In this document: positions 1 through 28,158 of the stretch, one piece after another | Layout of the letters: every line of letters begins with the position of its first letter | How positions within the stretch are numbered: the stretch's first letter is position 1 | Assembly: GCA_965222075.1 (NCBI GenBank) | Contig: OZ244937.1 | Coordinates: forward strand, 4,928,001 to 4,992,000 | Length of the DNA stretch: 64,000 nucleotides | Direction: 5' to 3' | Source: Candidatus Latescibacterota bacterium | GTDB taxonomy: Bacteria > Latescibacterota > UBA2968 > GCA-2709665 | Translations under genes and position numbers: made by a program | The notes under the pieces: generated by a model | What the model saw: the letters and a program-made list of their open reading frames with translations, nothing else | Database searches by the model: none | Told to the model about the DNA's origin: nothing

Positions 1-2
1 CC

Positions 3-1967: not shown

Positions 1968-1992
1968 AGAGCGAAGAGCGAAGAGCGTGAGA
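1951..1992 (+). repeat. Heptamer tandem repeat (GAAGAGC)n at the GWxTD A/B junction
   Basis: gaagagc units overlap the stop of gene A. Confidence 0.7.
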
Positions 1993-1997
1993 GGCTT

Positions 1998-5774: not shown

Positions 5775-5781
5775 GGATGGG

Positions 5782-7635
5782 ATGGGTTGTGTGATTCGTT
5801 ATTGCGGGGGGGCAGTTCTGCTCGGTGCCCTGTGGGTTTTCTGTACGGCGGCCGGCGCTCAGGATGTGCGGTTTGTGGACGTGACCGAGCAGTGCGGCAT
5901 CGACTTTGTGCACGTCAACGGGGCCAGCCAGGAGAAGTTCCCGGTCGAGACGATGTGCGCAGGCTGCGGGTTTTTGGATTACGATGGGGACGGGGACCTG
6001 GACATTTACCTGGTCAACGGGGCACCGCTGCCGGGCTTCAAGGCGGAGCAGACGCCGGTCAACCGGCTTTACCGGAACGACGGAGCGGCGTCGGGGTGGA
6101 CGTTTACGGACGTGACCGAGGCGTCGGGGGCGGGCGATTCGGGCTATGGCATGGGCTGCGTTGCCGGGGATTACGACAACGACGGGGACCAGGACCTGTA
6201 CGTGACGAACTGGGGCCCCAACGTGCTTTACCGGAACGAGGGAAACGGGACGTTTACCAATGTGACCGACCAGGCGGGGGTGGGGAATGCCCTGTGGGGC
6301 TCGGCGGCGGCGTTTTTCGACTACGACGGGGACGGAGACCTGGACCTCTACGTGGCCAACTATCTGGATTCCCGATTGGACAACAACAAATTTTGCAGCA
6401 GTCTCCGCAGTATGGGTAAACGGGCCTACTGCCACCCGGACGAGTACCCCGGGGTGCCGGACGTGCTCTACCGGAATGAGGGGGATGGAACGTTTACCGA
6501 CGTGACCCGGGAGGCCGGGGTCTACCAGCCGGGGGGGAAGGGCCTGGGGGTGGTCTGCACCGACTACGACGGGGACGGAGACTTAGACCTCTACGTGGCC
6601 AACGACTCGATGGAGAATTACCTCTTCGACAACTCAGGAGACGGGATGTTCGAGGAGGTCGCGTTGCTGGTGGGGGCGGCGTTCAACGAGGCGGGACAAG
6701 CCGAGGCGGGGATGGGGGTGGACTGCGCCGATGTAGACGGGGATGGATTCTTGGATCTTATGATCGGACACCTGGACAACGAGACGAATACGCTCTACCG
6801 GAACGAGGGGGAGGGGATGTTTACAGATGTCACACCCACCTCGGGCATCGGTCCTCCTACCCTGCTGAAGGTGACGTTCGGGATAGTTTTTCTGGATGTG
6901 GAAAACGACGGGGATGCGGACGCCTTTGCGGCCAACGGCCACGTGCTGGACAACATCTCACTCGTATCCGATCAGGTCCCGTACAAGCAGCCCAACCAGC
7001 TTTTCGAAAATGTGGGCGGGGGGCGCTTTGTGGAGGCCTCGGAACGCTATGGCCCCGGCCTGGGCATCGTCAAGGCAAGCCGGGGGCTGGCCGCGGGGGA
7101 TTACGACAACGATGGGGACGTGGATCTGCTGGTGGCCAATATCGCCGAAGGACCGGATTTGCTGCGGAACGAGGGGGGCAACGGGGAGAACTGGCTGATG
7201 GTGAAGCTGGTGGGAGGGGCCAGGGGGGGCATGCGGGATGCGGGTTTCGGAAATAAAGGCATTCCTTCCAGGCAGGAGAGGCGGTCCGGTGAGCCGGAGG
7301 CGGGCCTGCCTGTGCGTTGCACGCAGACAGGCGTTAGCCAATCGTCCGGGGTGGGTGGTGAAGGGTCAGGGGGTGGGGTCTCGAACCGGGACGGGGTCGG
7401 GGCCCGGGTGACGGTAGTGGCGGGAGACCTTCGGCAGGTGAAGGAGGTGCACTGCGGGGCCAGTTATCTTGCTGCCAACGACCTGAGGGTGCATTTTGGG
7501 CTGGGGAAGCGGGAAGGGGTGGACAGCCTGGAGGTCCGGTGGCCGTCGGGGATTGTGGATCGGGTCGAGGGGGTTGGGGTTAACCGGCTGGTGGTGATTA
7601 GAGAAGGGGAGGCCGGGAGGGGATGGGGGAGATAG
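5782..7635 (+). CDS. CRTAC1-family protein (FG-GAP/VCBS repeats + ASPIC/UnbV domain)
   Basis: Multiple DYDxDGDxD repeats, LYRNxGxGxFxDVT, SNRDGVGARV, HFGLG, EVRWPSG; signal peptide after ATG 5782. Confidence 0.9.
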   Translation: MGCVIRYCGGAVLLGALWVFCTAAGAQDVRFVDVTEQCGIDFVHVNGASQEKFPVETMCAGCGFLDYDGDGDLDIYLVNGAPLPGFKAEQTPVNRLYRNDGAASGWTFTDVTEASGAGDSGYGMGCVAGDYDNDGDQDLYVTNWGPNVLYRNEGNGTFTNVTDQAGVGNALWGSAAAFFDYDGDGDLDLYVANYLDSRLDNNKFCSSLRSMGKRAYCHPDEYPGVPDVLYRNEGDGTFTDVTREAGVYQPGGKGLGVVCTDYDGDGDLDLYVANDSMENYLFDNSGDGMFEEVALLVGAAFNEAGQAEAGMGVDCADVDGDGFLDLMIGHLDNETNTLYRNEGEGMFTDVTPTSGIGPPTLLKVTFGIVFLDVENDGDADAFAANGHVLDNISLVSDQVPYKQPNQLFENVGGGRFVEASERYGPGLGIVKASRGLAAGDYDNDGDVDLLVANIAEGPDLLRNEGGNGENWLMVKLVGGARGGMRDAGFGNKGIPSRQERRSGEPEAGLPVRCTQTGVSQSSGVGGEGSGGGVSNRDGVGARVTVVAGDLRQVKEVHCGASYLAANDLRVHFGLGKREGVDSLEVRWPSGIVDRVEGVGVNRLVVIREGEAGRGWGR

Positions 7636-13403: not shown

Positions 13404-13416
13404 AGCAAAAAGGAGG

Positions 13417-13445
13417 TTGACAAGGGGGCTTCAGGTGGGTACATT
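13417..13445 (+). promoter_or_regulatory. Sigma70 promoter P1
   Basis: TTGACA-N17-TACATT with an upstream A-tract. Confidence 0.75.
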
Positions 13446-13492
13446 AGGGGGTAAGAATCAGAGTGTTTATTGCTGAGCCGGGGATGAGCCGT

Positions 13493-13525
13493 CAAAGGGG
13501 GACGGTTAGACCCCTTTTTTATTTT
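13493..13525 (+). terminator. Putative intrinsic terminator T1
   Basis: aaagggg...ccccttt followed by a U-rich tract. Confidence 0.5.
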
Positions 13526-13542
13526 GGTGATAAAAAAAAAGG

Positions 13543-13571
13543 TTGACAAGAGGATTTCGGGTGAGTACATT
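13543..13571 (+). promoter_or_regulatory. Sigma70 promoter P2 (duplicate of P1)
   Basis: TTGACA-N17-TACATT with A9 upstream, 126 bp after P1. Confidence 0.75.
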
Positions 13572-13670
13572 ACAAGGCCATGTGAATTCCTGATTCTGGG
13601 ATTTAAACCTTACGGGGTTCAGGTTATGTGGTCGAATTGGTTTAATTATCATTCAATCATTCATTCACGC

Positions 13671-13714: not shown

Positions 13715-13877
13715 ATGTTTTGAAGGCCAGTCTTGAAAAGTATGGAAAGGAGGGATGCGTAGAATTAATGTTGTCGGGTGGTTGCTCGATGGTTCCTGGC
13801 GTAGACATGGCCAACATCCCCTCACGGATGTCTGCGGCCGTAATTTCAACCTTATAATGTGGAAGGGGGGAATTATT

Positions 13878-14588
13878 TTGAAGACGAAGGCATGGTTGCT
13901 GTTTTTGACTGGGGTATTCCTGTTGAGCTCCGTCTCAACGGTGGACGCGCAGGCCCGTAAATGGGGTGTGGGCGCGTTCCTCTCCTGGAACAACCCTGTG
14001 AGTAAACTGGGGGATCAGTTCGGTCCGGCGCCCAAGTATGGGGCAAACTGGCAGTATCTGATTTCCCCGAGGCTCTACCTTGAAATGGAGTACCACTATT
14101 CCAAGTGGAAACGTGGGAAGTTAGTGGATAGGACGTTTACCTGGTCGGTGGACGGGAATGACTATCTGAGCCCGAGGGCGGAGGCGACGATGAAGATGAA
14201 CAGTATGATGTTTAACCTGTTGATCTTCCACCAGCAGGTCCCGTCCTTTAAGGGCAAAGATTTTACGTATTATTTTACGGTTGGAGGTGGGTTCCACAAT
14301 TACAACGCAGCACGTCGGAATTTCATCTACCCGGATCAGAAGGCGGAGCCTATTGATAAGACCCTGGTGCTCCAGGATCAGATCGACACGAGGGCCGCGT
14401 TGACGGTCAACTTTGGGTTTGGGGTTCAGGCTTTTGCGATAGACAACGTGGCGATAGACCTTCGGGCGCGTTACCACGTGATGATGGGCGATATCCGGCC
14501 GATGTGGGACTGGGGGGTCGTGAACAAGGCGTTTCCGATGATGCTGTTCGATATCGGCGCAGGTGTGAAGTTTTACTTCTGGAAGTAA
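13878..14588 (+). CDS. Small outer-membrane beta-barrel protein
   Basis: TTG start after a G-rich RBS; signal peptide ending VDAQA; amphipathic strands; C-terminal GAGVKFYFWK. Confidence 0.75.
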   Translation: MKTKAWLLFLTGVFLLSSVSTVDAQARKWGVGAFLSWNNPVSKLGDQFGPAPKYGANWQYLISPRLYLEMEYHYSKWKRGKLVDRTFTWSVDGNDYLSPRAEATMKMNSMMFNLLIFHQQVPSFKGKDFTYYFTVGGGFHNYNAARRNFIYPDQKAEPIDKTLVLQDQIDTRAALTVNFGFGVQAFAIDNVAIDLRARYHVMMGDIRPMWDWGVVNKAFPMMLFDIGAGVKFYFWK

Positions 14589-14609
14589 TCAGATAAGGAG
14601 GACTGAGCG

Positions 14610-17600
14610 ATGGCAACAAGCAAGCGTCTATTTATTCTCGTCGGCATGCTGTCTTTGCTGGTGGCCCTGCCCTTCTGGAGCGTCTACGGAGGTTCTCTGG
14701 GGAAGATTCAGGGGCGGGTGCTGGACGCAACGAACGCACCCCTGCCCGGGGCCAGCGTGGTGATTGAAGGCACGCAGCGGGGGACGGTGACCGACGCAGA
14801 CGGGTACTACCTGCTCCTGGCGTTGGACCCGGGGAAGTATTCTCTGACCGCGTCGCTGGTGGGGTATACGAATGTGACGCAGAAGGAGGTGGAGATCACG
14901 GTCGATCACACGACCATCGTGGACTTTTCGCTGAAGGAGGAGGCGATCGAGGCGGCCGAGATCGTGGTGACCGCCGAGCGTCCTCCGGTGGAGCTGGACA
15001 AGACCGCGACGAAGTATCTGGTGACGGCCGATGATATCGAGCAGACGCCGATCATCAAGACGACGGCGGAGTTTATCTCCCTGCAGCCTGGTGTGGACCA
15101 GGCCGGTACGTTCACCATCCGCGGGTCAGACACCACCCGGGGCACCAACCCCAATGCGTGGGGCTCGCAGTGGTATGCGCCCAACGACACGTATGTGATG
15201 GTGGATGGGGTTCGCATTCCCAACCAGGATGGGCACTCGGCCATCCTGTTTACGGGGATAAACAAGAGCGCGGTGCAGCAGATCTCGGTGGAGACGGGTG
15301 TGACCCCCGCAGAGTATGGGGACGCGCAGGCAGGCACGATCAACATCGTGACGAAGGATGGTGGGAAGGAGTTCCACGGGTGGTCGGAGGTCAACTTCGA
15401 GCCTGCGGGTCAGAAGCACTGGGGGGCGAACATCTACGATGCGCCAAGCCACCGCAACAGGATGGACTGGGACAATCCGGAGTGGCTGGGAGAGACGGAC
15501 CCGTTGACGGGCCGGATCATCCACGTGCGTGAGGACTACGCCAGCAACCAGGGCGTGCGGTTGGAGGGCAGCCTGTCGGGTCCGCTGGGTCCGAAGGCGG
15601 GGTTCATCGTTTCGGCCAAACACGACCGCCGCGCCTCGACCTATCCGGCAGCGACGAGCCACGGGTTTTATAACGACCGTGGGCAGTATCTCAACGCGCC
15701 GGACTACTTCTCGGGATCGGGAAGTGTCACCCTCAAGCCTACGCCCAACACGAAGTTCAAGCTGGGGTTGATCCTTGAGACCTACACGGCCTACAACGAC
15801 GAAGTCAACGAGTATGGGTATGCCAACGAGGGCTTCATCCGGGGCACGCGGCACAGCCTGCGTAATCTCTTCCTGCCCAAGAACTGGGCGGGTTCCGGTC
15901 AGTATGATCACCAGGAGGACCTGGAGTATATCACCTTTACGCACACGCTGTCTCCCAAGACGTTTTACGAGGTGCGCATTTCGCGGAGCCACACAGGCCA
16001 GGATACGGTTGGCGCGCCTGCGTTTACGACGGACTCTCGCAAGGACAAGAGCGGGTGGTTCATCATCGACCGTCAAATCGCGATGTGGGTCGATTCACAG
16101 CGGACGCGCCTTGCGCTTAAGGCAGACGTGTCCAGCCAGATCACCAAGGGGAATTTTGCGAAGGTCGGCTTTGAGGCGGTCTCCTACGATGCGTATTACA
16201 CCTACTGGGGCGCCCGGTCGAAGTCGGACAACTGGTTTACGTATTATGCAGGTGGAGATACCCCCTGGGAGATGGGCACGCCTGCCCAGCCGATTCGTGG
16301 GTCTTTGTATGCGCAGGATAAGATGGAGTTTGAGGGGTTGATCGTAAACGTGGGTCTGCGCCTCGATTTCCAGAAGCACCGTCACGAGGAGCTGGTGCGA
16401 TCCGGGATGCACTGGGCGCCGATGTGGCGTCGGTATAGCAACCGTCACTACGGCTACGGCGTGGGCGCGGGGAACGGTGTGGAGGTTCCCCAGAACTTTG
16501 CGCTGACGCCGCCGACGCATGTCTACCTCAGCCCCCGGTTGGGCATCTCTCATCCGATCACGGACCGGATGGTGATGCACTTCTCTCTGGGCAGATTCGT
16601 GCAGTGGATGGACCTTTACAGGCAGTATGCGAAGTCCTACCGCAACTTCGGCCGGATCGGTCCGGATGGGGATCCTTCCTGGGTCGACCTCAACAACAAC
16701 GGGGTGAAGGACGCTGCGGAGCATTTGAGCAACATGGACCCGCACTACAGTGGGTTTGGCGGGGATCCGTGGACGCTCCCGGAGGAGACGCTGACGTTTG
16801 AGGTGGGCGCAGACTGGAACTTCGTGTCTGACTACACCGCAACGTTGACGATGTTCTACCGCAACGAGACGCAGCAGATCCGCAACGACGGTACGGGCTG
16901 GTATGGTCCCAAGCGTGGGTCTCACTACACGCGGGGCAAGGCGAACTCGGCCGCGGCGTATATCAAGGGCGTGGAGCTGGCGCTCGGAAAGCGGATGAGC
17001 AGCTATTTCTCCTTCCGGGTGGCGTGGTCGGCGTCGTGGTCGGCGTTCGGCAACATGGGCCTCTCCCAGTATGGAGCGTCCGTGTATCCGGACTCCAACT
17101 TTGTGCGCAGCAGCAATTTCTGGTATGATTTCACTTACGGCGCCGATGGGTCGGGAATAGGGATTCCGCTGACGGAGAAGGAGAAAGAGGAGTTCAGCCA
17201 TAGTGCGAACAATTCGGTGCGCAGCCTCCTCAACAGCCGACGGGACAATCCCCAGCGGTTCTACGGCAAGATGCCGGAGTTTGAGGACGATGCGATCTTT
17301 ATCGACTACCGGTCGCTGGGCGGAAACCGCTACGGTCCGATGGGCGCCTGGGCAGGTCAGAAGAGCGGTTGGATACTGGCGCAGGCGAACGTGCAGTTTG
17401 TGCTGAATACGCCCTCAGACGTGCGGTTTGGCCCCGGGTGGATGAGCTGGATGGCGAGCGACCTGAGCGCGAACATGCTCTGGAAGATGCGGTCGGGAGG
17501 ACGGGTGCGGTGGACGCCGCCGGGGCAGGAACGGCGGGTAGACCACAGATCGATCGATGCCACAACGGACCTGAGCGTAGAGAAGGTGTTCAACGCAAAG

Positions 17601-17807
17601 GGTCGGGTGCGGCCGGCGCTCTTCGTCGAGGTCCGCAACCTGTTCGAAGATAAGATTGACACGGCCAATAACACGGACTACATGCGGTGGGGTCTGATGA
17701 TGGCCCGTCCGGACAATGCCGACTTCATCCAGTACGGGGACTTCGGCGACCGGAGTTACTTCAAGAGACCCAGGCAGACCAACATCGGTCTCCGTGTGAT
17801 CTTTTAA
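14610..17807 (+). CDS. TonB-dependent receptor with N-terminal carboxypeptidase-regulatory-like domain
   Basis: GKIQGRVLDA..PLPGASV..EGT..G..TDADGYY; plug motif PAEYGDAQAGTINIVTK; SPRLGISHPIT; C-terminal Phe; AAGGAGG RBS. Confidence 0.9.
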   Translation: MATSKRLFILVGMLSLLVALPFWSVYGGSLGKIQGRVLDATNAPLPGASVVIEGTQRGTVTDADGYYLLLALDPGKYSLTASLVGYTNVTQKEVEITVDHTTIVDFSLKEEAIEAAEIVVTAERPPVELDKTATKYLVTADDIEQTPIIKTTAEFISLQPGVDQAGTFTIRGSDTTRGTNPNAWGSQWYAPNDTYVMVDGVRIPNQDGHSAILFTGINKSAVQQISVETGVTPAEYGDAQAGTINIVTKDGGKEFHGWSEVNFEPAGQKHWGANIYDAPSHRNRMDWDNPEWLGETDPLTGRIIHVREDYASNQGVRLEGSLSGPLGPKAGFIVSAKHDRRASTYPAATSHGFYNDRGQYLNAPDYFSGSGSVTLKPTPNTKFKLGLILETYTAYNDEVNEYGYANEGFIRGTRHSLRNLFLPKNWAGSGQYDHQEDLEYITFTHTLSPKTFYEVRISRSHTGQDTVGAPAFTTDSRKDKSGWFIIDRQIAMWVDSQRTRLALKADVSSQITKGNFAKVGFEAVSYDAYYTYWGARSKSDNWFTYYAGGDTPWEMGTPAQPIRGSLYAQDKMEFEGLIVNVGLRLDFQKHRHEELVRSGMHWAPMWRRYSNRHYGYGVGAGNGVEVPQNFALTPPTHVYLSPRLGISHPITDRMVMHFSLGRFVQWMDLYRQYAKSYRNFGRIGPDGDPSWVDLNNNGVKDAAEHLSNMDPHYSGFGGDPWTLPEETLTFEVGADWNFVSDYTATLTMFYRNETQQIRNDGTGWYGPKRGSHYTRGKANSAAAYIKGVELALGKRMSSYFSFRVAWSASWSAFGNMGLSQYGASVYPDSNFVRSSNFWYDFTYGADGSGIGIPLTEKEKEEFSHSANNSVRSLLNSRRDNPQRFYGKMPEFEDDAIFIDYRSLGGNRYGPMGAWAGQKSGWILAQANVQFVLNTPSDVRFGPGWMSWMASDLSANMLWKMRSGGRVRWTPPGQERRVDHRSIDATTDLSVEKVFNAKGRVRPALFVEVRNLFEDKIDTANNTDYMRWGLMMARPDNADFIQYGDFGDRSYFKRPRQTNIGLRVIF

Positions 17808-17813
17808 CCGACA

Positions 17814-17852
17814 TCAGGTGGACGCGGCCTTACGGGGCTGTGTCCACCTGAT
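17814..17852. other. Strong intergenic hairpin without U-tract
   Basis: atcaggtggac...gtccacctgat, 11-bp perfect arms plus an inner stem. Confidence 0.7.
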
Positions 17853-17888
17853 ATTCTGTAATGAAACTTATGGAAGGAGGATTAGGGT

Positions 17889-20303
17889 ATGAGGGTGCGA
17901 ATATGGGTTTCAGCGGCTGTCGCGCTGTGTGCGGGGCTACTGCTTTGTACTCAAGTGTCCGACCTCTACGCCCAGGCGAACCAGGCGCCTACGACGTATA
18001 CGCTGCGGTCGATGTTGAAGACCGGTTTCCGAAACGTGGGCATCCAGGGCGCGTTTTTCAATTCGGGCGCGGGCTCCGGGCAGTATCAGTCTTACCCGTA
18101 CAACCACGGGGGAGGTGGCTCCTACGGTTCCAACCTGCTTAGCGGTACGGGCAGTTCCAACTCCGAGGCCTATCAGAATTCGGTACGCGCAGGCCACGGG
18201 GTGTGGACGATGACGTCGGATGCGGAGGTGGTCTACACGGGCGTGCGGATCGGCATGCAGGAGGAGAAGATCACGGCGATGCAGTACGACGTGGAGTCTG
18301 ATCCGGACCTGTCGGGTCTGGGCAAGGGCGGGATTGGGGACTGGTACTTCCACCGCCGGCCGACAGTGAAGCTGGGGAACGGATCGCGGTATCAGGATGG
18401 GTTTGTGGAGTCGAGCATGGGCGGAAACTGGTGGCCGGGTTCCGACCTGATCGTGGAGGGGAGGAAGTCGCAGCCCCTCAGCAAGCCCCCGGTCCACATT
18501 TTGAATTATCAATTCAGCGAGTACCCGCGGAACGACGAGTGGCCTGAGGAGATCATTATTACGCAGTGGACGAATACGCAGGGGATAACAACCACCGAGC
18601 GGGCGTCCATGTGGAGCCACCCCGATTTCGACGATCTGATCATTGATGAGTACATCCTCGAAAACACGGGGGATACGGACGGCGACGGCGACCCGGACAT
18701 GCCGGTGGGTCAGTTGAACGACCTCTACATCGGATTCCAGGACCGGTACAATATCAGCGCTGCGGGACAGCATGCGTATATCCGGTACTGGCGGGACGAG
18801 CGGGACTGGTGCATGGACGACTGGTACGTGTACGACCCGGGCAACAAGGTGCTTTATGCCTGGGACGGGGACCATCCGCTCTACCGCGACTGGGACGATA
18901 CGGGAGACCCGTACAAGGATGCGTTTGCGACAGGTACACTGGCGAACGGCGGGAAGATCCGACAGGGTGAGGACACGCCGATGTCGCCTGCGCACCTGGG
19001 TGTGGGCGTGGTCGCCTATACGGACGATCCCACCAGCCCATACAGGTACAATGCTCACGACACGGGCAAGGGCTACGTGGAACCGGACGGAGACCAGCCT
19101 TATGCCGTGCGGTTCTGGGAGTCGTTCAACTCGAACGTGCAGAACGACCCGAGCAACATAGAGATGACAGAGACGGAGATCTACTCCGATGTGCTGGGCG
19201 GCGGACGCTCTATCGACGCGAACCCGGACCATACGAGTGGGCAGTTCTCCATGCTGATCTTCGGGCCTTATGACGTGCCTCCGAACGGCAAGATCAAGAT
19301 CGTGCTGGCCTATTTGGCAGGGCACCCCGGGCAGATGCTGGGAAATACGGACGTGTGGACCTGGGCGAGGGCCGACAAGCCCCTTGCGACGAAGCAGGCA
19401 GAACTGCTGAGGGGTAAGGACGCGCTTGAGGCCAACTTGGAGGCGGCCAGGTTTGCTTACCAGAACGCCTTCGACATTCCGGACGCGCCGCCGGACGTGA
19501 ACTTCCGGTCGGGCAGCAGCCCGAGTGCGTCCATGACGCTGGACTGGCCCGTGTCGGTGGAAAACGCGGCCCACCCGGACTACGCAGGTGGAGAGGCGAA
19601 CGACGTTGCAGGCTACCGGGTTTATCGGTCCACCTGGTTCCACCAGGGGCCGTGGGAGCTGCTTGCGGACATTCCGACGGGAACGACGAGCATGGAGGAG
19701 ACAAACTTCGAGGTGTCCCGCGCGAGCGATTCCAAGTTCGGCGATCTTTACCTCTTTGAGGACAAGAACTCGGCCGCCGGGTTCTTCTTCTACTATAGCG
19801 TTCGTCCCTACAGCAAGCCTCACACGAGTTGGTCGCCGGGCGGTGACATGGCCATGCATCCGCTGGGGATGGCGGACCTCCCTGGGCAGGTTATCACACA
19901 CGTGCAGGTGGGGCAGGAGGGGGGATGGGCTGCAAATACGCAGCGGATCTACGCGGCCGAGTCGCCCTTTGCCATTCCATCGGCCGGGTCGGAGAACCTG
20001 CAGGAGCAGGTGCTGGTGGTGCCCAACCCGTACTTCTTAGATGAGTCGCACCAATACCCGGGATCCACGAAGATCCGATTTGTGGGTGTTCCGTCAAAGT
20101 CCCGGATCCGGGTCTTCTCGGTGTCGGGGGATCTGGTCTCCGACTTCAAGCACGACGATGCGAGCAAGGGGGAGACCGACTACAATCAGTTCACCTGGAA
20201 TTTCGGCGGAGAGATCGCCACGGGAGTCTACTTCTACGTGGTGGAGAATCTGACCGGGAGCGGCGAGCAGTTCCAGAGAGGCACCTTCATGGTATTGCGA
20301 TAG
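17889..20303 (+). CDS. Secreted protein with FN3-like domain and T9SS type-A/FlgD-like C-terminal sorting domain
   Basis: Signal peptide; AGYRVYRS...YYSVRPY FN3-like segment; CTD VLVVPNPY...IRVFSVSGDLV...ATGVYFYVV...FMVLR; DTDGDGDPD Ca-type loop. Confidence 0.75.
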   Translation: MRVRIWVSAAVALCAGLLLCTQVSDLYAQANQAPTTYTLRSMLKTGFRNVGIQGAFFNSGAGSGQYQSYPYNHGGGGSYGSNLLSGTGSSNSEAYQNSVRAGHGVWTMTSDAEVVYTGVRIGMQEEKITAMQYDVESDPDLSGLGKGGIGDWYFHRRPTVKLGNGSRYQDGFVESSMGGNWWPGSDLIVEGRKSQPLSKPPVHILNYQFSEYPRNDEWPEEIIITQWTNTQGITTTERASMWSHPDFDDLIIDEYILENTGDTDGDGDPDMPVGQLNDLYIGFQDRYNISAAGQHAYIRYWRDERDWCMDDWYVYDPGNKVLYAWDGDHPLYRDWDDTGDPYKDAFATGTLANGGKIRQGEDTPMSPAHLGVGVVAYTDDPTSPYRYNAHDTGKGYVEPDGDQPYAVRFWESFNSNVQNDPSNIEMTETEIYSDVLGGGRSIDANPDHTSGQFSMLIFGPYDVPPNGKIKIVLAYLAGHPGQMLGNTDVWTWARADKPLATKQAELLRGKDALEANLEAARFAYQNAFDIPDAPPDVNFRSGSSPSASMTLDWPVSVENAAHPDYAGGEANDVAGYRVYRSTWFHQGPWELLADIPTGTTSMEETNFEVSRASDSKFGDLYLFEDKNSAAGFFFYYSVRPYSKPHTSWSPGGDMAMHPLGMADLPGQVITHVQVGQEGGWAANTQRIYAAESPFAIPSAGSENLQEQVLVVPNPYFLDESHQYPGSTKIRFVGVPSKSRIRVFSVSGDLVSDFKHDDASKGETDYNQFTWNFGGEIATGVYFYVVENLTGSGEQFQRGTFMVLR

Positions 20304-20324
20304 GCGACGAAAGGGGGTAGAACG

Positions 20325-21353
20325 ATGAAATATTTCAGAACCATATTCCTGCTCGCCGCGATGGGGATGCTTCTGGTTCCCCCTCCAGGCGATGCAGATA
20401 TTTTTCCCATTAACAATGACATTACGGACCTCCGTCCTGAAAACCAGGGCACCCACGTGCGGCGCACCGATACGCACCTGTGGGTGGGGCTGTCCGGGTT
20501 TCAGTTCCTGAAGATCGGCCAGGGCGCACGCGCCGTGGCTATGGGCGATGCGTATACGGCCGTGGCCGATGACATCAACGCGATTTACTGGAACCCGGCG
20601 GGGCTGACGGCGGTGCGGGGGACGGCCTGGACGGCCAACTACACGAAGTGGTTGGTGGACTCCGAGGTTTACTCAGCGGCGGTGGCCTGGAACACGGGTA
20701 CTGCCCAGGGCGGGGTGCTCGGGATGAGCGTGATGTCTTTTCGGCCCGGGGAGATCCTCGAGACGACGATCTTCCAGCCCCGAGGCACCGGCCAGACCGT
20801 GGCCGCCGGCGACCTGGCCATCGGCGTGGTCTATGCGCTGAAGCTGACGGACAAGTTCTCGTTCGCTACCCGGGTGCAGTGGATCCACCAGACGCTGTAC
20901 ACGGAGAGCCTCAGTACGATTGGCATTGACGTTGGAACGCTTTTCCATACCGGCTTCAAGAGCCTGCGCCTGGCCATGGCGCTGAAGAACTTCGGCCCGG
21001 ACAAGAAAGTGACGGAGACCAAGTTCTTCATGCCGCTTTATTACAACGTAGCCTTAGCGGCAGAGTTCTACGGCGAGAAGGGCGACCTGACGTACCTGAC
21101 GATCACCGGAGAGTCTGCGTTTGCGGCGGATTACGAGCTGCGCGCGCACGTGGGCGCAGAGGCGTGGTTCCAGAACATCTTTGCGCTGCGAGCGGGCTAC
21201 AAGATCAACTACGACACGGACAGTTTCAGTGCGGGCGCCGGCCTGAAGTATGAGATTGCCGGCGATCGGTCGTTGACGGTGGACGTGGCCTATTCGGATA
21301 TGGGCGAGTTATTCAGCGCCCCCATCCGGGTGACGGTCGGAGGGACGTTCTAA
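20325..21353 (+). CDS. PorV/PorQ-family outer-membrane barrel
   Basis: FLKIGQGARAVAMGDAYTAVADDINAIYWNPAGL signature; LRAGY; C-terminal Phe. Confidence 0.85.
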   Translation: MKYFRTIFLLAAMGMLLVPPPGDADIFPINNDITDLRPENQGTHVRRTDTHLWVGLSGFQFLKIGQGARAVAMGDAYTAVADDINAIYWNPAGLTAVRGTAWTANYTKWLVDSEVYSAAVAWNTGTAQGGVLGMSVMSFRPGEILETTIFQPRGTGQTVAAGDLAIGVVYALKLTDKFSFATRVQWIHQTLYTESLSTIGIDVGTLFHTGFKSLRLAMALKNFGPDKKVTETKFFMPLYYNVALAAEFYGEKGDLTYLTITGESAFAADYELRAHVGAEAWFQNIFALRAGYKINYDTDSFSAGAGLKYEIAGDRSLTVDVAYSDMGELFSAPIRVTVGGTF

Positions 21354-21376
21354 GAGGCAGACGTTTAGCCGCAAGC

Positions 21377-21424
21377 AAAGCCGGCGGTCACCTCCCGGAT
21401 AAAGGGGGTGCCGTCGGCTTTTTT
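21377..21424 (+). terminator. Intrinsic terminator after porV/Q-like gene
   Basis: aaagccggcgg-cacc...ggtg-ccgtcggc followed by T-tract. Confidence 0.75.
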
Positions 21425-21664
21425 AATAACAGACGACAGCGGTAAGCCTTTCCGATCGTCTGTTTTTTGGGTATATTTTAAAGCGTTCCACGTTTGTTAT
21501 AGGATCTATTATCAGGATGAGCGTTTTGGTCTATCAGGATATTCCCGGCAAGGGTTCGCCCATCCGGCATATTATAATAAGACGTTCTTATATATAGTAT
21601 AGCGCGGTTCCGGGGGCGGGGCGTTGAGATCCGTTTTACCAAAGAGGCAGGAGGAGATGGAACA

Positions 21665-24217
21665 ATGGAGAAGAAGCGCTTTGGTCTGTTAATCGGTCGG
21701 ATCGCAGGGGGTGTGGTGGTCCTGCTCTGGCTGGTAGGGAGCGTCCCGGCTCAGGAAGATGGTGATGTATCCCCGGAGGCGTCGGAAGCGACAGCGGACA
21801 CGTCCAGGGCGAAAAAGGAGGCGGCGGTGCAGGCGCTGGAGCAGCGCGTGCAGGCCGATCCGGACGATGCGGAGCAGTGGCTGCAACTGGGCCACGCCCG
21901 CCTGGATGCGGGAGACCTGAAGGGGGCGGAAAAGGCGTTTGAAAAGGCCGAATCCAGGGGGGGGGATGAGGTGGATGCGAAGGCCTACAACGGGTTGGGG
22001 CTGGTTTACACGGAACGCCCGCGCCAGCTTCAGACGGCGATCCATTTCTTCCAGAAGGCCCTGAGGAAGGCCCCTCGCTACGTAGAGGCGCACTACAACA
22101 AGGCGCGGGCGTATTACACTCACAACTGGCTTTCCCACGCGATTAAGGCGGCCAAGGACGCCTTAGCCGTGGATTCCACGCACGTGGCAGCGCAGCAGCT
22201 CATCGACAGGTGCCGCGCGATCAAGGTGGAGGATGCGGGAAAGTCGAAGGAGATGTACGAGAAATACCTGGAGTCAAAGCCGGAGGACATGATGAGCTGG
22301 GTGGAATGGGGGAAGCTGGCGGTGGTGGAGGGAGACTACGAGCAGATTCTGAACCGTCTGCCGGGTGTAATCGAGGCGAACCCGGGGTGGTGGGAGCTGT
22401 TCCCGATCCTGGGGCAGGCCTTCTGGAAGGTGAACATGCTGGAACCGGCGGGGATAGCCTTCAGCAGGTATGTGGAGGGCTTAGAGGAGGAGGAACGGGT
22501 GCTGTATGAAGACCTGAGCCTGGTCACGTGGGGGGATGAGACCCGCGCATTTGAAGCGGCCACCGGGGAAGACCGGAGGGAGGTGGCGAAGCGCTTCTGG
22601 GCGGAGCGGGACCCGGACTATACGACGCCGGTCAACGAGCGCCAGTTAGAGCACTACCGGAGGGTGTGGTATGCGCGGACCTATTTCTCAAGGTATAAGC
22701 AGCCCTGGGACCGGCGGGGGGAGGTCTACATCCGCTACGGGGAGCCGGACCACCGAAGCCGATCCAGGCACCCAAGCCCGCCCCTTTCGGAGTCGGTAAC
22801 CGCGGTGAAGGAGCGGTATTTCAATCTGATCTACAGCAATATGCACTCCCTCCTGTCCATGGGCGGCGGGTCTGAGATCAACACGGGCGCAGAGGGTGCG
22901 GATTACCCCGTTTACGATATTTCCCAGGGCGAGGCGCCGCAGAATTTCGGCGATCTGTTCGGGGATGAGGACCGGTATCAGGGCAATCAGGGCACGTCGA
23001 GGGGCATCGAGTGGTACGACGCGGTTACGGGCGGGCTGACCGGGTCGCTGGTGGGGCCGGTTTTTCCGGTGCGCTCCTACGATCCCAATGTGGCAGGGGG
23101 CGTGTATCTGCCGGTCGGTTCGAGCGATTTCAGCATGGTGAAGTGGGAGTCGTGGACCTACACGCACATCGACGGGGGAATCGTGATCGACTTTACCGAC
23201 GAGATCGGCAAGTCGGGGTTCGACTACGCGCCAATTCCGGATTTGCACAAGACGCCGGGGTTGCGGCACGGGTCCACCGCAGGGATGGACGACATCCGGG
23301 CGATGACCGCCTTTACCCGGCGGGCGCCGATGACGATTATGCGCACGGCGGCGGCGGCGGTGCCGGAGCAGTATACGATCCCGGAGGAGGACCGTCCCAT
23401 GGACTTCTACTTCGATCAGGCGAAGTTCCGGGCGGTGGCGGACTCCGCCCACGTGGAGGTCTACTATGGGGTGCCGATGGCGGAGACGACCTACTTTGCG
23501 GGCGACGATGTGACCGGGCTGCGGGCGGCCTGCCGGGTCGCGCTTGCAGAAGTGGATAAGGAGGACGGGAGGATTTACCGGTCCGAGAGCGAGCTGGTCT
23601 ACGTGGAGCCGGGAGATCGGACCGGGGGGAGCAGATTTAGGATTATCCCCCACGTGGTCGCCTTAGACGTCCCTCCCGGTGAATACACCCTGGACGTGCG
23701 GATGGAGAACCGGCTGGATGGGGAGATCGGCACCTACCGGAAGCGTCTGACCGTGGAGCCGTATCCGGGCGGACCGCTCAAGCTGAGCGACGTTCAACTG
23801 GCCTGGAAGGTCACCGAAGAGGGACCGCCGGATAGGTTCTCCAAGAACGGCCTGAAGGTGCTGCCGATGCCGACGCGGCTTTATAAGAGGGGCCAGCCGG
23901 TGTTCCTCTACTACGAGATCTACAATCTGAGGCGGGACGAGTTCGGGATGACCAACTACACGGTGGAGTATATGATACGGTCGGGCAAGCCGCCCGGGGT
24001 GATCTCGCGGCTCTTTCGGGCGTTTCAGGGTGGGGAGAAGGACGAACGGGTGGCGGTGGCGCAGGAGCAGCTGGGCACGCAGGAGACGCAGCCCAGTTAC
24101 ATCGAGCTGGATTTGAGCGAGGTCGTGCCGGGGGAGGTGGTGTTGACGGTGACGGTGGAGGACCTCAACTCGGGCGAGACGGTGTCGAGGGAGGCGAAGT
24201 TCGAAATTATGGAATAA
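21665..24217 (+). CDS. GWxTD-domain TPR protein, type A' (paralog of 3-1967)
   Basis: Signal peptide, N-terminal TPRs, PWDRRGEVYIRYGEPD, C-terminal half highly similar to gene A. Confidence 0.88.
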   Translation: MEKKRFGLLIGRIAGGVVVLLWLVGSVPAQEDGDVSPEASEATADTSRAKKEAAVQALEQRVQADPDDAEQWLQLGHARLDAGDLKGAEKAFEKAESRGGDEVDAKAYNGLGLVYTERPRQLQTAIHFFQKALRKAPRYVEAHYNKARAYYTHNWLSHAIKAAKDALAVDSTHVAAQQLIDRCRAIKVEDAGKSKEMYEKYLESKPEDMMSWVEWGKLAVVEGDYEQILNRLPGVIEANPGWWELFPILGQAFWKVNMLEPAGIAFSRYVEGLEEEERVLYEDLSLVTWGDETRAFEAATGEDRREVAKRFWAERDPDYTTPVNERQLEHYRRVWYARTYFSRYKQPWDRRGEVYIRYGEPDHRSRSRHPSPPLSESVTAVKERYFNLIYSNMHSLLSMGGGSEINTGAEGADYPVYDISQGEAPQNFGDLFGDEDRYQGNQGTSRGIEWYDAVTGGLTGSLVGPVFPVRSYDPNVAGGVYLPVGSSDFSMVKWESWTYTHIDGGIVIDFTDEIGKSGFDYAPIPDLHKTPGLRHGSTAGMDDIRAMTAFTRRAPMTIMRTAAAAVPEQYTIPEEDRPMDFYFDQAKFRAVADSAHVEVYYGVPMAETTYFAGDDVTGLRAACRVALAEVDKEDGRIYRSESELVYVEPGDRTGGSRFRIIPHVVALDVPPGEYTLDVRMENRLDGEIGTYRKRLTVEPYPGGPLKLSDVQLAWKVTEEGPPDRFSKNGLKVLPMPTRLYKRGQPVFLYYEIYNLRRDEFGMTNYTVEYMIRSGKPPGVISRLFRAFQGGEKDERVAVAQEQLGTQETQPSYIELDLSEVVPGEVVLTVTVEDLNSGETVSREAKFEIME

Positions 24218-24273
24218 GGCGGTTTTTGAATCCGCATTCTGAAATCCGAAATCTACAATGGTCAGGAGCCGGG

Positions 24274-27200
24274 ATGAGGCATCTTATGAGAAGGCCGGGC
24301 GGCCTGTTGAGCGCGGTCGTTGCTCTGGCGGCCGTCTGTGGTTCACTGCCAGCGGTTGCGTGGCAGGCAGGCAGGCAGGCACAGGTCAACGGTGTGAGGT
24401 CTCCCGACGGGAAGGGTCTGGCCTACACGGTGGCCAGGGGCAGGCCGGAGGCGCTGATGACCGAGATCCGGACGGCGCGTGCGGATGGGAGCGGGGGCCA
24501 GCTGGTCAAGGCCTACCTGGGCGAGCCGGGCGATCTTTGTTTTCTGCCGGGGGGCGAAGGGTTCGTCTACCTCCAGGTGAGCCTTTCCTATACGGTCTTC
24601 GGATCGCACCTCTGCGCCGAGTATAAGTTGCCCCTGATGCGGAATCGGGTCTGGCGGCTGAAGGCGGATGGGTCGTCCGAGACGCTCTGGCCCCTGCCCG
24701 GGGAGCTTCAGCCGCTCAGGATTGCGGTTTCTCCGGATGGGGGGCGGCTGGCTGTGGGCGGGTTCCGGGGGAGCCTGCAGGACCGTGAGGACCGGGGGCT
24801 GTGGGTTGTGGACCACAGCGGGGCCGCCGTCCGGCTGCTGAACGGCCGGGTGACCGGACCTTTGCGATGGTCCTCCGATTCGGGGCGGATTTTCTGTGCC
24901 GTGGAGGAGGGGGGGTGTTTGAGGGGCGTGGCCGTGCAGGTGGGAACGGGCGAGGTGACGGACGCAGATGCGCCGGAAGCTGAAGCGTACGCAGGGGGCG
25001 ACGATGCCGCGCCCGCCGATGTCGTCGATGGGACAGCACCCGGTCTGATCAGCAATGCGCTGGACCGGTATACGAAGGGCTACCACGCGATGCACCAGGA
25101 CAGGCCCTACCGGCTGATAAAGAACGCATATAAGGGGGCCATCCGTGCCTTTGAGCAGCTTTACAAAGGAGGGATCTCAAAAGCGGACTGCCTCGGCTAC
25201 ATCCAGACGCTGCGTGCCCGGATCCCTAAGAAAAAGGGTGAGGGTGAGAGGAGGCACCGACGGGCCAGCTGCCGGGAACACCAGCTTGTTGTGGGCACCC
25301 TGTTTGAAGGTTACGCGCAGGCGCACGGGCAGCTTCCCCCTACCTTAGAGGACCTGCGCTTCTGGGTGGAGCGCCAGGTCGAAGAGAGGGCCTCCCGGGA
25401 GGAGGCGCCCGAGGAGGCCATAGAGAGAGATCGGACGACCCTGGCCCGTATTTTTCACTGTGCGACCGATCCCGACCGGGAGCGGTCGATCAGCTACGTG
25501 TACCGGCCCGAGGCGCCCCCGGGCACCCCGGTGCTTCTCTGCTACTGGCACCGGGGCGAACTGCTTCGCCTCAGGGAGAGGTCGGGAGGGTACGGCGCTG
25601 AGGTCCTGACCTTGTATCCCGATCAGATCGATTCCTTAGATGCGGCGGCGGCCGGCTACCTGGAGGCAGAGGCGGCGGACAGCGCCGTTGCCCTCCTGGA
25701 GGTGGTGTCCCATCAGCGCCACAAAGACCCGGTTTCGCACAATAAATACGGTTATGCCGCACTTGAGGCAAAGGACGATGCGCTGGCAGAGAAGGCGTTT
25801 AAGCGGGCGGCCTCCCTGAGCAAGGGGAAGGTGCTGGCCAGGGCGTATTACGGCCTGGGGCTGATCAATATGGAGCGTTCCAGGGGTCGGCAGACGGCCA
25901 TCGAATATTTCCGGGACGCCCTGAGCCGGGACCGGAAATTTGTGGACGCCAGATACCAGATGGCCAGGGCGCGCGTTCTCCTGTGGCAGTATGACGCAAA
26001 GTCCGACATTGAGAAGGTCCTGAAGATGGACCCGAATTATGCGGATGCCTACCTGCTGATGGGGGACTACGAGGCGGACCTCAATAAGGAATACGAGCGC
26101 GCGATCCCCTGGTATACGAAGTATCTGGCGCTGCGGCCCGACGATCCGGTGAGCCGGAACCGGCTGAGCATGGCCTATTTGCACGTGAAGGACTACGACA
26201 AGGTTATGGAGACGCTGCTGGGATTCGTCCAGGAGCATCCGGATGCGATTGAACTGCTGCCGATTGTCTCCCAGGCGTGCGCCAAACAGGATAAGCTGGA
26301 CCTGGCGATGGGCTTCTTCAAGGCGTATGTTTCAAAGCTCGACCCGGAGGAGCGGGCGCTTTACAAGGATATCAGCCGGTTCGCCTCGAAGGAGGAGCTG
26401 GCGGAGTATTCCAGGGCCTCCGGCGCGGAGCAGGAGGCGTTTTTGAAGCGCTTCTGGAACGGGCGGGACCCGGACCTGTCCACGCCGGTCAACGAGCGCC
26501 TCCTGGAGCACTACCGGCGGGTGTGGTATGCCCGGCAGAGCTTCTCGAAGGAGCGGCAGCCGTGGGATATGCGCGGGGAGGTCTACGTGCGGTTCGGGGA
26601 GCCGGACCACCGGACGAGTTCGGCGATGATGAACGCCAGGCAGAGTCTGGAGGTGCAGCGGGTCAAGGAGCGGATGGCCCTGGACATTTATGGGACCGAT
26701 GGGAGCCAGGCGAGCTTCGTTGGGCCGGTATACCCCGTGCGTACCCTTGCGATGGGGGCGCGCCTCCGCGACTTACAGGGCGAATTCGAGGCGTCGGAGG
26801 TTGAGGTTATCACCGAAGATGTTGACGACCAGCAGCTGGATATAGTGGCCGCCGGCCCCAATACACGAACGAACACTGAATCGGGGATGATGCAGCGGGG
26901 GGAAGGGGGAAACCAGCAGTCTCAGCTGCAGTCACAGTCCCAATCTCAGTCGCAGTCGCAGACCCTGGTCACAGCGGCCATCAGCGATGCTTCCGACGGC
27001 TCGTTTAGCGGCGATCTGATGGAAATCAATGAGATGTTGAACTTAGAGGGGACCTTTTCGGTGGCCGGGGAGGATTTCTTAAAGTTCGGGGAATACCGTC
27101 CTGTCATCACTTCCGGCGCAGATGTCTCCACGGTCCCCTGGGAGTCCTGGGTCTACACCCGGATCGGCGGGGGTATTGAGATCACCTTTACCGACGAGTC

Positions 27201-28158
27201 GGGCAAGGGGGCTTACAATTATGCCCCCATCCCGATGGCCTTCGACGTTTCCGCACGTCAGATGACCAAGTTTGCACGGTATGCGCCGGAGACCATTTTT
27301 CAACGGGCGGTTGCGGCCTTTCCCGACTTCTACACGCCCGAATACGACAAGATCCCCTTTGATTTCTACTTTGATCTGGCCGATTTTCGGGGGGACAATG
27401 GAAAGAGCGTCGTAGAGATCTACTACGGAATGCCCGGCATGGCGTCCCGGTACTTTCCCAGAGAGGGTGTGACGCGGCTGGTGGTGAAACGCCAGGCCGC
27501 CCTGGTGGGGACGTCTCTGGATACGGTCTACCGGACATCGGGCGACCTGTTCTACCAGGCGCCGGGGTCCAGGGTCGGGGCGTTTGTTCCCGATATTGTG
27601 CGACTGGAGGTGCCTCCCGGAACCTACCGGCTGGAGGTGCGGGCTCGGGACCGGATGACGGGCCGGATCGGCCTTTACCGGAAGGAAGTGGAGGTGGAGG
27701 GCTACGCAGGGGAGGGGCTGCAGCTGAGCGACCTGACCCTGGCCTGGCGGATTGCCCAGGACCAGCCGATGGACAAGTTCACCAAGAACGGGCTGCACAT
27801 CGTTCCGATGCCCACCCGGATGTATCCCCAGGGGCAGGGCATCTTTGTCTACTACGAGATCTACAACCTGGTGCGGGACTCGTTCGGGCAGACGAGGTAC
27901 CGGGTGGAGTATACGATCCGGCCGGCGGGGGGGAATATTGTTTCGCGGCTGGTGCGGACGTTTGTGGGGAAGAAGAAGGAGGTGGTGGTGGGCTACGAGC
28001 AGGTCGGTTATAAGGAGGCGGAGTCGGTGTATATGGAGCTGGATCTGGGTGAGACCACACCGGGACGGCACTATTTGAAGGTTGAGGTGACGGATTTGAA
28101 CAGCGAGGAGGCGGTGACGGCGCTGAAGGATGTGCCCTTTACGGTGGCTCGGCAGTAG
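24274..28158 (+). CDS. GWxTD-domain protein, type B' (paralog of 1998-5774)
   Basis: Same architecture as B; AGGAG RBS before ATG 24274; long near-identical DNA stretches with B. Confidence 0.88.
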   Translation: MRHLMRRPGGLLSAVVALAAVCGSLPAVAWQAGRQAQVNGVRSPDGKGLAYTVARGRPEALMTEIRTARADGSGGQLVKAYLGEPGDLCFLPGGEGFVYLQVSLSYTVFGSHLCAEYKLPLMRNRVWRLKADGSSETLWPLPGELQPLRIAVSPDGGRLAVGGFRGSLQDREDRGLWVVDHSGAAVRLLNGRVTGPLRWSSDSGRIFCAVEEGGCLRGVAVQVGTGEVTDADAPEAEAYAGGDDAAPADVVDGTAPGLISNALDRYTKGYHAMHQDRPYRLIKNAYKGAIRAFEQLYKGGISKADCLGYIQTLRARIPKKKGEGERRHRRASCREHQLVVGTLFEGYAQAHGQLPPTLEDLRFWVERQVEERASREEAPEEAIERDRTTLARIFHCATDPDRERSISYVYRPEAPPGTPVLLCYWHRGELLRLRERSGGYGAEVLTLYPDQIDSLDAAAAGYLEAEAADSAVALLEVVSHQRHKDPVSHNKYGYAALEAKDDALAEKAFKRAASLSKGKVLARAYYGLGLINMERSRGRQTAIEYFRDALSRDRKFVDARYQMARARVLLWQYDAKSDIEKVLKMDPNYADAYLLMGDYEADLNKEYERAIPWYTKYLALRPDDPVSRNRLSMAYLHVKDYDKVMETLLGFVQEHPDAIELLPIVSQACAKQDKLDLAMGFFKAYVSKLDPEERALYKDISRFASKEELAEYSRASGAEQEAFLKRFWNGRDPDLSTPVNERLLEHYRRVWYARQSFSKERQPWDMRGEVYVRFGEPDHRTSSAMMNARQSLEVQRVKERMALDIYGTDGSQASFVGPVYPVRTLAMGARLRDLQGEFEASEVEVITEDVDDQQLDIVAAGPNTRTNTESGMMQRGEGGNQQSQLQSQSQSQSQSQTLVTAAISDASDGSFSGDLMEINEMLNLEGTFSVAGEDFLKFGEYRPVITSGADVSTVPWESWVYTRIGGGIEITFTDESGKGAYNYAPIPMAFDVSARQMTKFARYAPETIFQRAVAAFPDFYTPEYDKIPFDFYFDLADFRGDNGKSVVEIYYGMPGMASRYFPREGVTRLVVKRQAALVGTSLDTVYRTSGDLFYQAPGSRVGAFVPDIVRLEVPPGTYRLEVRARDRMTGRIGLYRKEVEVEGYAGEGLQLSDLTLAWRIAQDQPMDKFTKNGLHIVPMPTRMYPQGQGIFVYYEIYNLVRDSFGQTRYRVEYTIRPAGGNIVSRLVRTFVGKKKEVVVGYEQVGYKEAESVYMELDLGETTPGRHYLKVEVTDLNSEEAVTALKDVPFTVARQ

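Follow-up and report, generated by a model that had tools for sequence, protein, structure and literature searches.

A conserved outer-membrane gene cassette of Candidatus Latescibacterota that couples a TonB-dependent receptor to an unannotated protein with a type IX-like tail and a PorV/PorQ-family barrel

We analysed a stretch of 64,000 nucleotides (nt) of contig OZ244937.1 (assembly GCA_965222075.1, Candidatus Latescibacterota bacterium; G+C content about 61%), hereafter the window, and focus on six co-oriented genes on its + strand (13878-28158), the first four of which make up a compact cassette (13878-21353). In order, the cassette encodes a small outer-membrane (OM) beta-barrel protein of 236 amino acids (aa; gene 1, 13878..14588), a TonB-dependent receptor of 1065 aa (gene 2, 14610..17807), an exported protein of 804 aa (gene 3, 17889..20303), which together with its family of about 800-aa proteins we call the cargo, and an OM barrel of the PorV/PorQ family of 342 aa (gene 4, 20325..21353), with intergenic gaps of 21, 81 and 21 nt. 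The N-termini of all six proteins are signal-peptide-like. An earlier note on this DNA had described four tightly spaced co-oriented genes closed by a terminator and followed by two exported proteins with tetratricopeptide repeats (TPR) and a GWxTD domain, and all of these elements are present on the + strand where it placed them. The cassette is typical of Candidatus Latescibacterota and of some other lineages in the FCB group (Fibrobacteres, Chlorobi and Bacteroidetes).

Related loci were collected by a scan of species-representative genomes for the cargo family, which gave 152 confirmed loci, and the best 80 were kept and underlie the locus counts reported here. These 80 loci come from 36 metagenome-assembled genome (MAG) assemblies, mostly of Candidatus Latescibacterota, with 62 loci labelled Latescibacterota, 13 Gemmatimonadota, three Marinimicrobia-type (Fidelibacterota) and one Ignavibacteriota (Melioribacteraceae), and one without a label. 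Neighbour order was counted with local profile hidden Markov models built from the window proteins and run over all six-frame open reading frames (ORFs) of the loci, the denominators of 67 and 70 in these order counts being the loci long enough to show the genes concerned. We observe that the receptor lies directly upstream of the cargo in 70 of 70 loci with enough sequence, that a PorV-like barrel lies directly downstream of the cargo in 79 of 80 (exception L020), and that the receptor is itself preceded by the small barrel in 64 of 67 (exceptions L006, L080 and L079). The Melioribacteraceae locus, L079, has all four genes in another order, with the small barrel between the cargo and the PorV-like barrel. 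All four genes stand in order at 63 of the 67 loci, and the gene order, on whose conservation the earlier note had staked its proposal, is kept in relatives. Multiplicity is high, with at least two loci in at least 26 of the 36 assemblies and at least seven in one of them, counted among the best 80 of the 152 loci. The four-gene arrangement is not a product of chance; it is a conserved multi-copy module without SusD. The lack of a SusD-like lipoprotein, claimed from the window alone, extends further, with no SusD family found in the six proteins, in the other window proteins scanned or in 43 recurrent neighbour clusters.

With respect to co-inheritance, the 70 complete loci fall into 10 cargo classes, eight of them with more than one member, which are orthologous and syntenic groups. 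The multi-member cargo classes form one side of a branch in eight of eight cases in the IQ-TREE phylogeny of the PorV-like barrel, in seven of eight for the receptor and in seven of eight for the small barrel. The class label changes across the trees add up to no more than the possible minimum, a total that none of 200 shuffles reaches, and FastTree trees have 45, 40 and 38 of 67 bipartitions in common. Two deep groupings are common to the cargo and receptor trees, namely {C2,C3,C4} at 96/98 and {C7,C8} at 99/98. Tree congruence had been proposed as a check on the cassette, and the four gene trees do agree on the paralogue classes, with cargo and receptor sharing both well-supported deep splits. 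The Gemmatimonadota-labelled MAG loci (L002, L012, L020, L021, L029, L040, L048, L054, L055, L062, L069, L075 and L077) belong, where classed, to classes that also contain Latescibacterota loci. Among distant paralogues, the most divergent parts are the cargo N-terminal domain (24-34% identity) and the barrel part of the receptor (34%), and the least divergent are the cargo tail (42%), the PorV-like barrel (43%), the receptor plug (46%) and the receptor N-terminal extension (55%). This pattern fits a predicted division in which specificity would reside in the cargo N-terminal domain and the receptor barrel part, with constant machinery contacts elsewhere.

After its signal peptide, the receptor has an N-terminal extension of the CarboxypepD_reg type (aa 33-120), a TonB-box-like segment, a plug (aa 132-242) and a large, divergent C-terminal part that ends in Phe. 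Both Pfam matches, CarbopepD_reg_2 (78.9 bits) and Plug (PF07715; 38.6 bits against a cutoff of 23.9), are above cutoff. Ahead of the plug lies the motif EIVVTAE (aa 117-123, nt 14958-14978), which we take to be a TonB box by comparison with the consensus, and residues E117, V120, A122, R124 and P125 are kept in 30 relatives. A receptor profile built from 30 relatives matches solved receptors, including FepA (E = 5.6e-16) and the SusC homologue 8aa4_A (E = 3.1e-14), over the extension and plug only. The C-terminal part is presumably a beta-barrel, which its length and C-terminal Phe fit. The receptor fails the SusC/RagA model TIGR04056 (70.8 bits against 368.25, aligned to model positions 2-207 of 981) and matches no Oar-specific model. 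At one related locus (L080:5258-9527), the receptor gene is in two pieces (710 and 323 aa) around an opposite-strand ORF of 374 aa, a split that may reflect an insertion.

The cargo begins with a signal peptide (aa 1-30), followed by a large N-terminal domain that matches no family (aa 31-525, nt 17979-19463), a weakly immunoglobulin (Ig)-like middle region (aa 528-700, nt 19470-19988), for which Ig-like matches, all sub-threshold, occur in 7 of 20 family members, and a beta-sandwich tail that resembles type IX secretion system (T9SS) sorting domains at sub-cutoff scores (aa 705-804, nt 20001-20300). No Pfam family matches the protein, and neither the cargo profile nor the tail profile has a meaningful solved relative in the PDB by sequence. 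Comparison of the cargo profile with itself and with 14 window proteins by hhalign gave no internal repeats and no similarity. In a set of 5.8 billion proteins, we found 17 relatives of similar length, none of them with a name. When 1.84 billion representatives were searched with a profile, 288 clusters were found at E ≤ 1e-30, rising to 2383 at E ≤ 1e-10 and to 5834 at E ≤ 1e-3, of which the weaker may have only the tail or the middle region in common. Distant relatives are equally unannotated, 24 of 27 being without a Pfam family. Of 81 family members, a single one has a lipobox-like motif, which is not credible; the cargo lacks a lipid anchor, as had been supposed, the lipobox being absent in the other 80. 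An apparent cargo-PorV fusion (a 1150-aa ORF at L038:9953-13405) was rejected as a frameshift in the record, its cargo end departing from the family sequence. In two Marinimicrobia-type loci (L050 and L076), a ceramidase-like gene comes after the first cargo/PorV-like pair and is followed by a second cargo paralogue of about 757 aa, which lies about 3.4 kb downstream of that pair and has no receptor or barrel of its own visible in the flanking sequence examined.

The tail was compared with sorting domains over the last 115 aa of the protein. In the window protein it scores 18.5 bits (E = 0.0014) with the type A sorting model TIGR04183, whose cutoff is 23, and matches the C-terminal domain (CTD) of PorZ at E = 8.7e-5. 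Among 64 distinct family tails, 40 match TIGR04183 at E ≤ 1 (best 2.6e-4); the PorZ tail is matched by 32 (best 1.8e-7), the tail of a T9SS-dependent M6-like protein by 28 and that of PorU by 10. The type B sorting domain (TIGR04131/CHU_C) is matched by 1 of the 64 tails, with CHU_C found in 4 of 13 full-length members (best E = 0.029), and PF18962 gave no match in the cargo family scans. In hhalign comparisons, the tail profile could be aligned at 66.6% probability and E = 5.4e-5 to a bona fide Por_Secre_tail (39.3 bits, cutoff 27) of a Neomarinimicrobiota locus, and at 67.7% and E = 4.9e-5 to the FlgD_ig-type tail of a neighbouring cohesin protein. In that Neomarinimicrobiota locus (L047:5902-6888), a 329-aa ORF with the Por_Secre_tail (TIGR04183, 50.9 bits) stands between the small barrel and the receptor. 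By these profile comparisons, the cargo tail is a putative divergent relative of type IX sorting domains and not a certified member. The description of gene 3 as a T9SS-CTD protein is plausible, given the likeness to type A and PorZ tails, yet sub-threshold, because the tail matches TIGR04183 below its cutoff.

The gene 4 protein scores 180.2 bits against the PorV/PorQ family model NF033709 (cutoff 90) and 35.4 bits against PF19572 (cutoff 27), and lies under both equivalog cutoffs, with 84.3 bits against 250 for PorV (NF033710) and 77.9 against 220 for PorQ (NF033711). Its family profile has a single solved relative, the PorV of Flavobacterium johnsoniae (6h3i_F, E = 3.4e-22), and its relatives carry the public name 'PorV/PorQ family protein'. 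Together with its place beside the cargo in 79 of the 80 loci, this bears out the dedicated PorV/Q barrel that had been predicted. Gene 1 has a TTG start, its longest ORF begins at 13755, and the protein, with a signal peptide, matches OMP_b-brl (PF13505, 22 bits) and TIGR04565 (35.5-36.1 bits), both under cutoff; TIGR04565 is matched by 24 of 26 family members, and the family profile has no meaningful solved relative by sequence. Two candidate identities were rejected, PorP/SprF since no such model matched in the NCBIfam scan, and PorG since it was matched by just 3 of 26 members, at E ≥ 0.006.

The four-gene unit is closed by two tandem hairpin and U-run terminators (21377..21470, + strand). 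In the computed fold of 21354-21480 (-50.6 kcal/mol, z = -4.22, none of 200 shuffles as stable), two hairpins stand in tandem with a U run after each, structures that a simple terminator scanner had missed. Upstream of the cassette, a promoter scan identified a promoter-like 40-nt element (TTGACA-17-TACATT) in two copies on the + strand (13407-13446 and 13533-13572, region 13407..13572), which form a direct repeat of 83% identity spaced 126 nt apart. The motif is unique within the window, none of 100 shuffles matches it, and it is absent from all 80 related loci; we regard the repeated element as a candidate promoter. No riboswitch or other Rfam family was found in the window or in the cassette leader.

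The two genes beyond the terminators encode GWxTD protein A (850 aa, 21665..24217, + strand), which begins 311 nt past the PorV-like gene and has a signal peptide, TPR repeats, a GWxTD domain (aa 281-368) and a conserved C-terminal half, and GWxTD protein B (1310 aa, 24226..28158, + strand), a paralogue of A with about 480 extra N-terminal aa. They match TIGR04514 (cutoff 28 bits) at 61.4 and 60.5 bits, respectively, with TPR Pfam matches in A, and are 39% identical over about 840 aa. In the PDB, the GWxTD family profile matches TPR proteins only, and the N-terminal part of B has no meaningful match. Across the sample, 57 loci have at least 9 kb of sequence on each flank, and 51 of these have a GWxTD gene within 10 kb on one side or the other; on the downstream side, one is present in 46 of 67. 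It is the sole neighbour common across classes C1, C2, C3, C5, C6, C7 and C9, and stands directly upstream in L053 (class C8); no GWxTD gene was found in the available sequence of L047 (Marinimicrobia-type) or L079 (Melioribacteraceae), each the sole classed locus of its kind. In a tree of 66 GWxTD C-terminal halves, the sequences group by the class of the neighbouring cassette (8 changes against a minimum of 7, none of 200 shuffles as low), and within classes C2 and C3 the A types stand apart from the B types. The association of GWxTD genes with the cassette, which the earlier note had proposed from a single case, is real and old. Its suggestion that these proteins are assembly or secretion factors finds nothing to support it: a GWxTD gene starts within 1.5 kb of the PorV-like gene end in 25 of 69 loci, 15 of them on the same strand and 10 convergent, so that in 10 of these 25 close downstream cases it is on the opposite strand.

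A second GWxTD pair occupies the start of the window (region 1..7635, + strand), with A2 cut by the window start and ending at 1967, B2 at 1998-5774 (49.3 and 55.2 bits against TIGR04514) and, after B2, a protein with FG-GAP_3 and UnbV_ASPIC matches (5740-7635, + strand). A and A2 are 65% identical, and B and B2 62%. This layout, a GWxTD pair and an FG-GAP/ASPIC gene followed by a cassette, matches that of L009 followed by L001 on one chromosome, where these genes come after the L009 cassette and L001 lies just downstream, and because of this match another cassette probably lies just before the window start, with 1..7635 as its tail.

With respect to the wider neighbourhood, clustering and scanning of recurrent neighbours revealed class-dependent sets that include GFO/IDH/MocA oxidoreductases, FGE-type enzymes, a sulfatase, a LacI regulator, an SSF symporter, gamma-glutamyltranspeptidase, an M14 peptidase, an enolase-superfamily enzyme and a Rha78A-like protein. 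In 43 of the 80 loci there is a DUF6785+DUF6784 protein with at least 11 predicted membrane helices, which directly follows the PorV-like gene in 12 of them and is a candidate inner-membrane permease of the same pathway. One example, of about 662 aa, is found at L044:17726-19711, and there is none within the window. Settings that vary in this way are what a transport module fitted into a range of substrate-utilisation loci would show. In the specific case of the window, the cassette and GWxTD pair are followed by a mostly co-oriented catabolic cluster (28278-50617) encoding a PhyH dioxygenase, an isochorismatase-like protein, a xylose-isomerase-like TIM barrel, an M20 deacylase, a CocE/NonD hydrolase, a TauD-like dioxygenase, LarA, an 851-aa PcRGLX-like protein, a DapA-like aldolase, a GFO/IDH/MocA protein, an aminotransferase and a DgaE-like lyase.

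Starting from the observed gene content, order, multiplicity, co-inheritance and catabolic context, the reading we prefer, and to which we give an even chance of being right, is that the cassette would be a SusCD-analogous uptake unit in which the cargo is held at the cell surface by its own PorV-like barrel and serves the receptor. One review assigns the T9SS to the FCB superphylum in the text available from it (PMC11205867), and the Latescibacteria are counted in that superphylum (PMC4454575). Under our preferred reading, the receptor would import a substrate. The cargo would be exported through the type IX pathway by way of its CTD and would not be released; its uncleaved tail would stay bound to the PorV/PorQ-type barrel of the cassette, as PorZ does on PorQ and PorU on PorV. 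Published excerpts describe the CTDs of PorU and PorZ as retained uncleaved on PorV and PorQ, holding the protein on the barrel, and allow that a CTD may be shielded from cleavage by its cognate PorV-like barrel (PMC10202324, PMC10947112). Barrel-held surface proteins have further precedents in the portions of the literature available: type B cargos have cognate PorP-like barrels as their anchors, and the 10 PorP-like proteins of F. johnsoniae are thought to be cargo-specific (PMC9143113), and a surface lipoprotein is held by a FadL-like barrel in the Bacteroidota BAM complex (PMC12578637). The large and fast-diverging N-terminal domain of the cargo would capture or process the substrate for the receptor, and the cargo might so fill the job of SusD and the surface glycan-binding lipoproteins in Bacteroidota, with the small barrel as a putative fourth structural member and the TPR-GWxTD proteins as likely long-term accessories. 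As for the earlier idea of a SusCD analogue built from T9SS parts, the conserved SusD-free module and its link to GWxTD genes stand, whereas the contacts and roles, that is, type IX export, retention by the barrel, surface location, receptor contact and the direction of transport, are what we infer.

Several observations weigh against this reading. The C-terminal part of the receptor matches no receptor-barrel model (including PF00593) at E ≤ 0.01 and no solved barrel. The window tail stays below the curated T9SS cutoff, and 24 of the 64 family tails do not match TIGR04183 at E ≤ 1. Bona fide type A sorting domains are scarce around the cassettes, occurring in 1 of 114 neighbour C-termini, in the Neomarinimicrobiota locus. 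SprA/Sov, PorKLMN and PorU did not turn up in general scans of the window proteins, the genomes not having been searched for T9SS core genes. No cargo-barrel or cargo-receptor fusions were found, nor any longer fused forms of the cargo, the latter being weak evidence. The deep splits common to cargo and receptor are recovered only as {C2,C3} in the PorV-like and small-barrel trees, where C7 and C8 stand elsewhere with support of at most 88. A mirror-tree comparison does not single out the tail-barrel pair, the Spearman distance correlation being 0.37 for tail and PorV-like barrel against 0.54 for cargo N-terminal domain and PorV-like barrel and 0.56 for N-terminal domain and receptor barrel part. 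Because tight linkage alone can give congruent trees, the phylogenies show that parts are not shuffled between cassettes and do not show protein contact.

The same genomic evidence, both order and trees, fits an alternative that we consider unlikely, though still credible, in which the cargo, an enzyme or binding protein, is secreted or only loosely attached, the barrel acts as its dedicated secretion shuttle and not as an anchor, and the receptor takes up products without a stable complex. PorV is portrayed, in the excerpts available, as a shuttle picking up cargo at the translocon (PMC9143113, PMC10947112); the tail-PorV distance correlation is not raised, and the many invariant Asp, Glu and Asn residues of the cargo N-terminal domain would fit a catalytic or Ca-binding site. 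Provision of an own barrel for each paralogous cassette (79 of 80 loci), however, goes beyond the needs of a general shuttle, the tails match best with PorZ and PorU, which are the two proteins with retained CTDs, and no enzyme family was detected in the cargo or in the distant relatives scanned.

More doubtful still, and in our judgement improbable, is that the PorV-family barrel is a FadL-type channel for a hydrophobic or amphiphilic substrate that works independently of the T9SS, the tail being an ordinary Ig-like domain and the cargo leaving by another route. A weak Toluene_X/FadL match of the barrel (E = 1.2e-4) and PF03349 matches in several barrel homologues point this way, as do the tail scores below T9SS cutoffs. 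The NF033709 score of the barrel, at 180 bits, argues against it, and among solved structures the family profile matches PorV only, with no FadL at E ≤ 0.01; on the side of the cargo, 40 of 64 tails match TIGR04183, and hhalign ties the tail to a bona fide sorting domain.

We give very little credence to a receptor that works outward, as the Oar protein of Myxococcus does, and secretes the cargo or another substrate across the OM. The N-terminal layout of extension, TonB box and plug is that reported for Oar in the part of the source available (PMC6434023), in a protein of about 1065 aa, but SusC-type receptors have the same extension and the profile matches a SusC homologue (E = 3.1e-14), the cargo has its own T9SS-like export tail and PorV-like partner, and catabolic neighbourhoods with inner-membrane permease-like genes fit import. 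A surface adhesin or envelope structural module (for gliding, an S-layer-like structure or aggregation) with the receptor as mere neighbour or anchor, an option suggested by adhesins among the barrel-anchored T9SS proteins, such as SprB-SprF in the available text of PMC9143113, and by recurring TPR and FG-GAP/ASPIC neighbours, is hardly probable at all, as the receptor adjoins the cargo in 70 of 70 loci and shares its deep tree splits, the class-specific catabolic context is hard to explain in this way, and the cargo profile is without the internal repeats typical of long adhesins.

Seen as a SusCD-analogous uptake unit, the cassette resembles several known systems in part. As in SusC/SusD (RagA/RagB), a receptor with a CarboxypepD_reg extension, a TonB box and a plug always stands beside a gene for a large exported partner, and several copies per genome each occupy a different catabolic neighbourhood. 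In contrast to SusC/SusD, the partner is neither SusD-homologous nor a lipoprotein, the receptor fails the SusC/RagA model, two further barrels are added, and the taxa are Latescibacterota, Marinimicrobia-type and Ignavibacteriota MAGs. With the PorQ-PorZ and PorV-PorU pairs, the cassette shares a PorV/PorQ-family barrel paired with a protein whose tail best resembles the PorZ and PorU CTDs; it differs from them in that barrel and partner are encoded together, recur several times per genome and come with a TonB-dependent receptor, that the barrel is under both equivalog cutoffs, and that the N-terminal domain of the cargo is unrelated to PorZ or PorU. A dedicated barrel, often encoded beside its cargo, that anchors a CTD protein is described for SprF-SprB and PorP-PG1035, which combine a PorP/SprF-like barrel with a type B CTD (PMC9143113, in its available text), whereas the cassette barrel belongs to the PorV/PorQ family, the cassette tail is type A-like and the small barrel matched no PorP/SprF model in NCBIfam. 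Finally, the receptor has the N-terminal architecture and size class of Myxococcus xanthus Oar, as far as the available text describes it (PMC6434023), whereas Oar is linked to PopC secretion, and neither a T9SS-tailed neighbour nor a PorV-like barrel is described for it.

Our literature search, which covered neither subscription papers nor supplements, found no paper on the cassette, on GWxTD proteins or on any pairing of Latescibacter* with T9SS, and nowhere a description of a TonB-dependent receptor coupled to a pair of CTD protein and PorV-type barrel. In the available part of the genomic paper on Latescibacteria, generic TonB import and porins are all that is mentioned (PMC4454575). Around an unannotated protein family, the cassette probably combines two known kinds of system, uptake of the SusCD type and type IX cargo anchored by a barrel.

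To our knowledge, polymer uptake by TonB-dependent receptors with surface partners is known almost only from the lipoprotein-dependent SusCD systems of Bacteroidota. In its boldest form, which we advance tentatively and with rather less than even confidence, our proposal is that the cassette may be a lipoprotein-free 'utilisome' of Latescibacterota and allied FCB lineages, in which a type IX-secreted, substrate-capturing lid or partner, from an unannotated family whose metagenomic clusters number in the hundreds to thousands, would be held non-covalently on a cassette-specific PorV-like barrel, accompanied by the small barrel and by class-specific GWxTD/TPR accessories. If the SusCD-analogous reading is true, the cassette would serve as a marker for substrate-utilisation loci in Latescibacterota MAGs, phyla of the FCB group other than Bacteroidota would build a SusCD-type machine from type IX secretion parts, PorV/PorQ paralogues would gain a role outside the secretion apparatus, and a large unannotated cargo family and the uncharacterised GWxTD proteins would have a working hypothesis. 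If the utilisome itself is real, it would represent a second, independent solution to the SusCD problem and give PorV paralogues a role in nutrient uptake.

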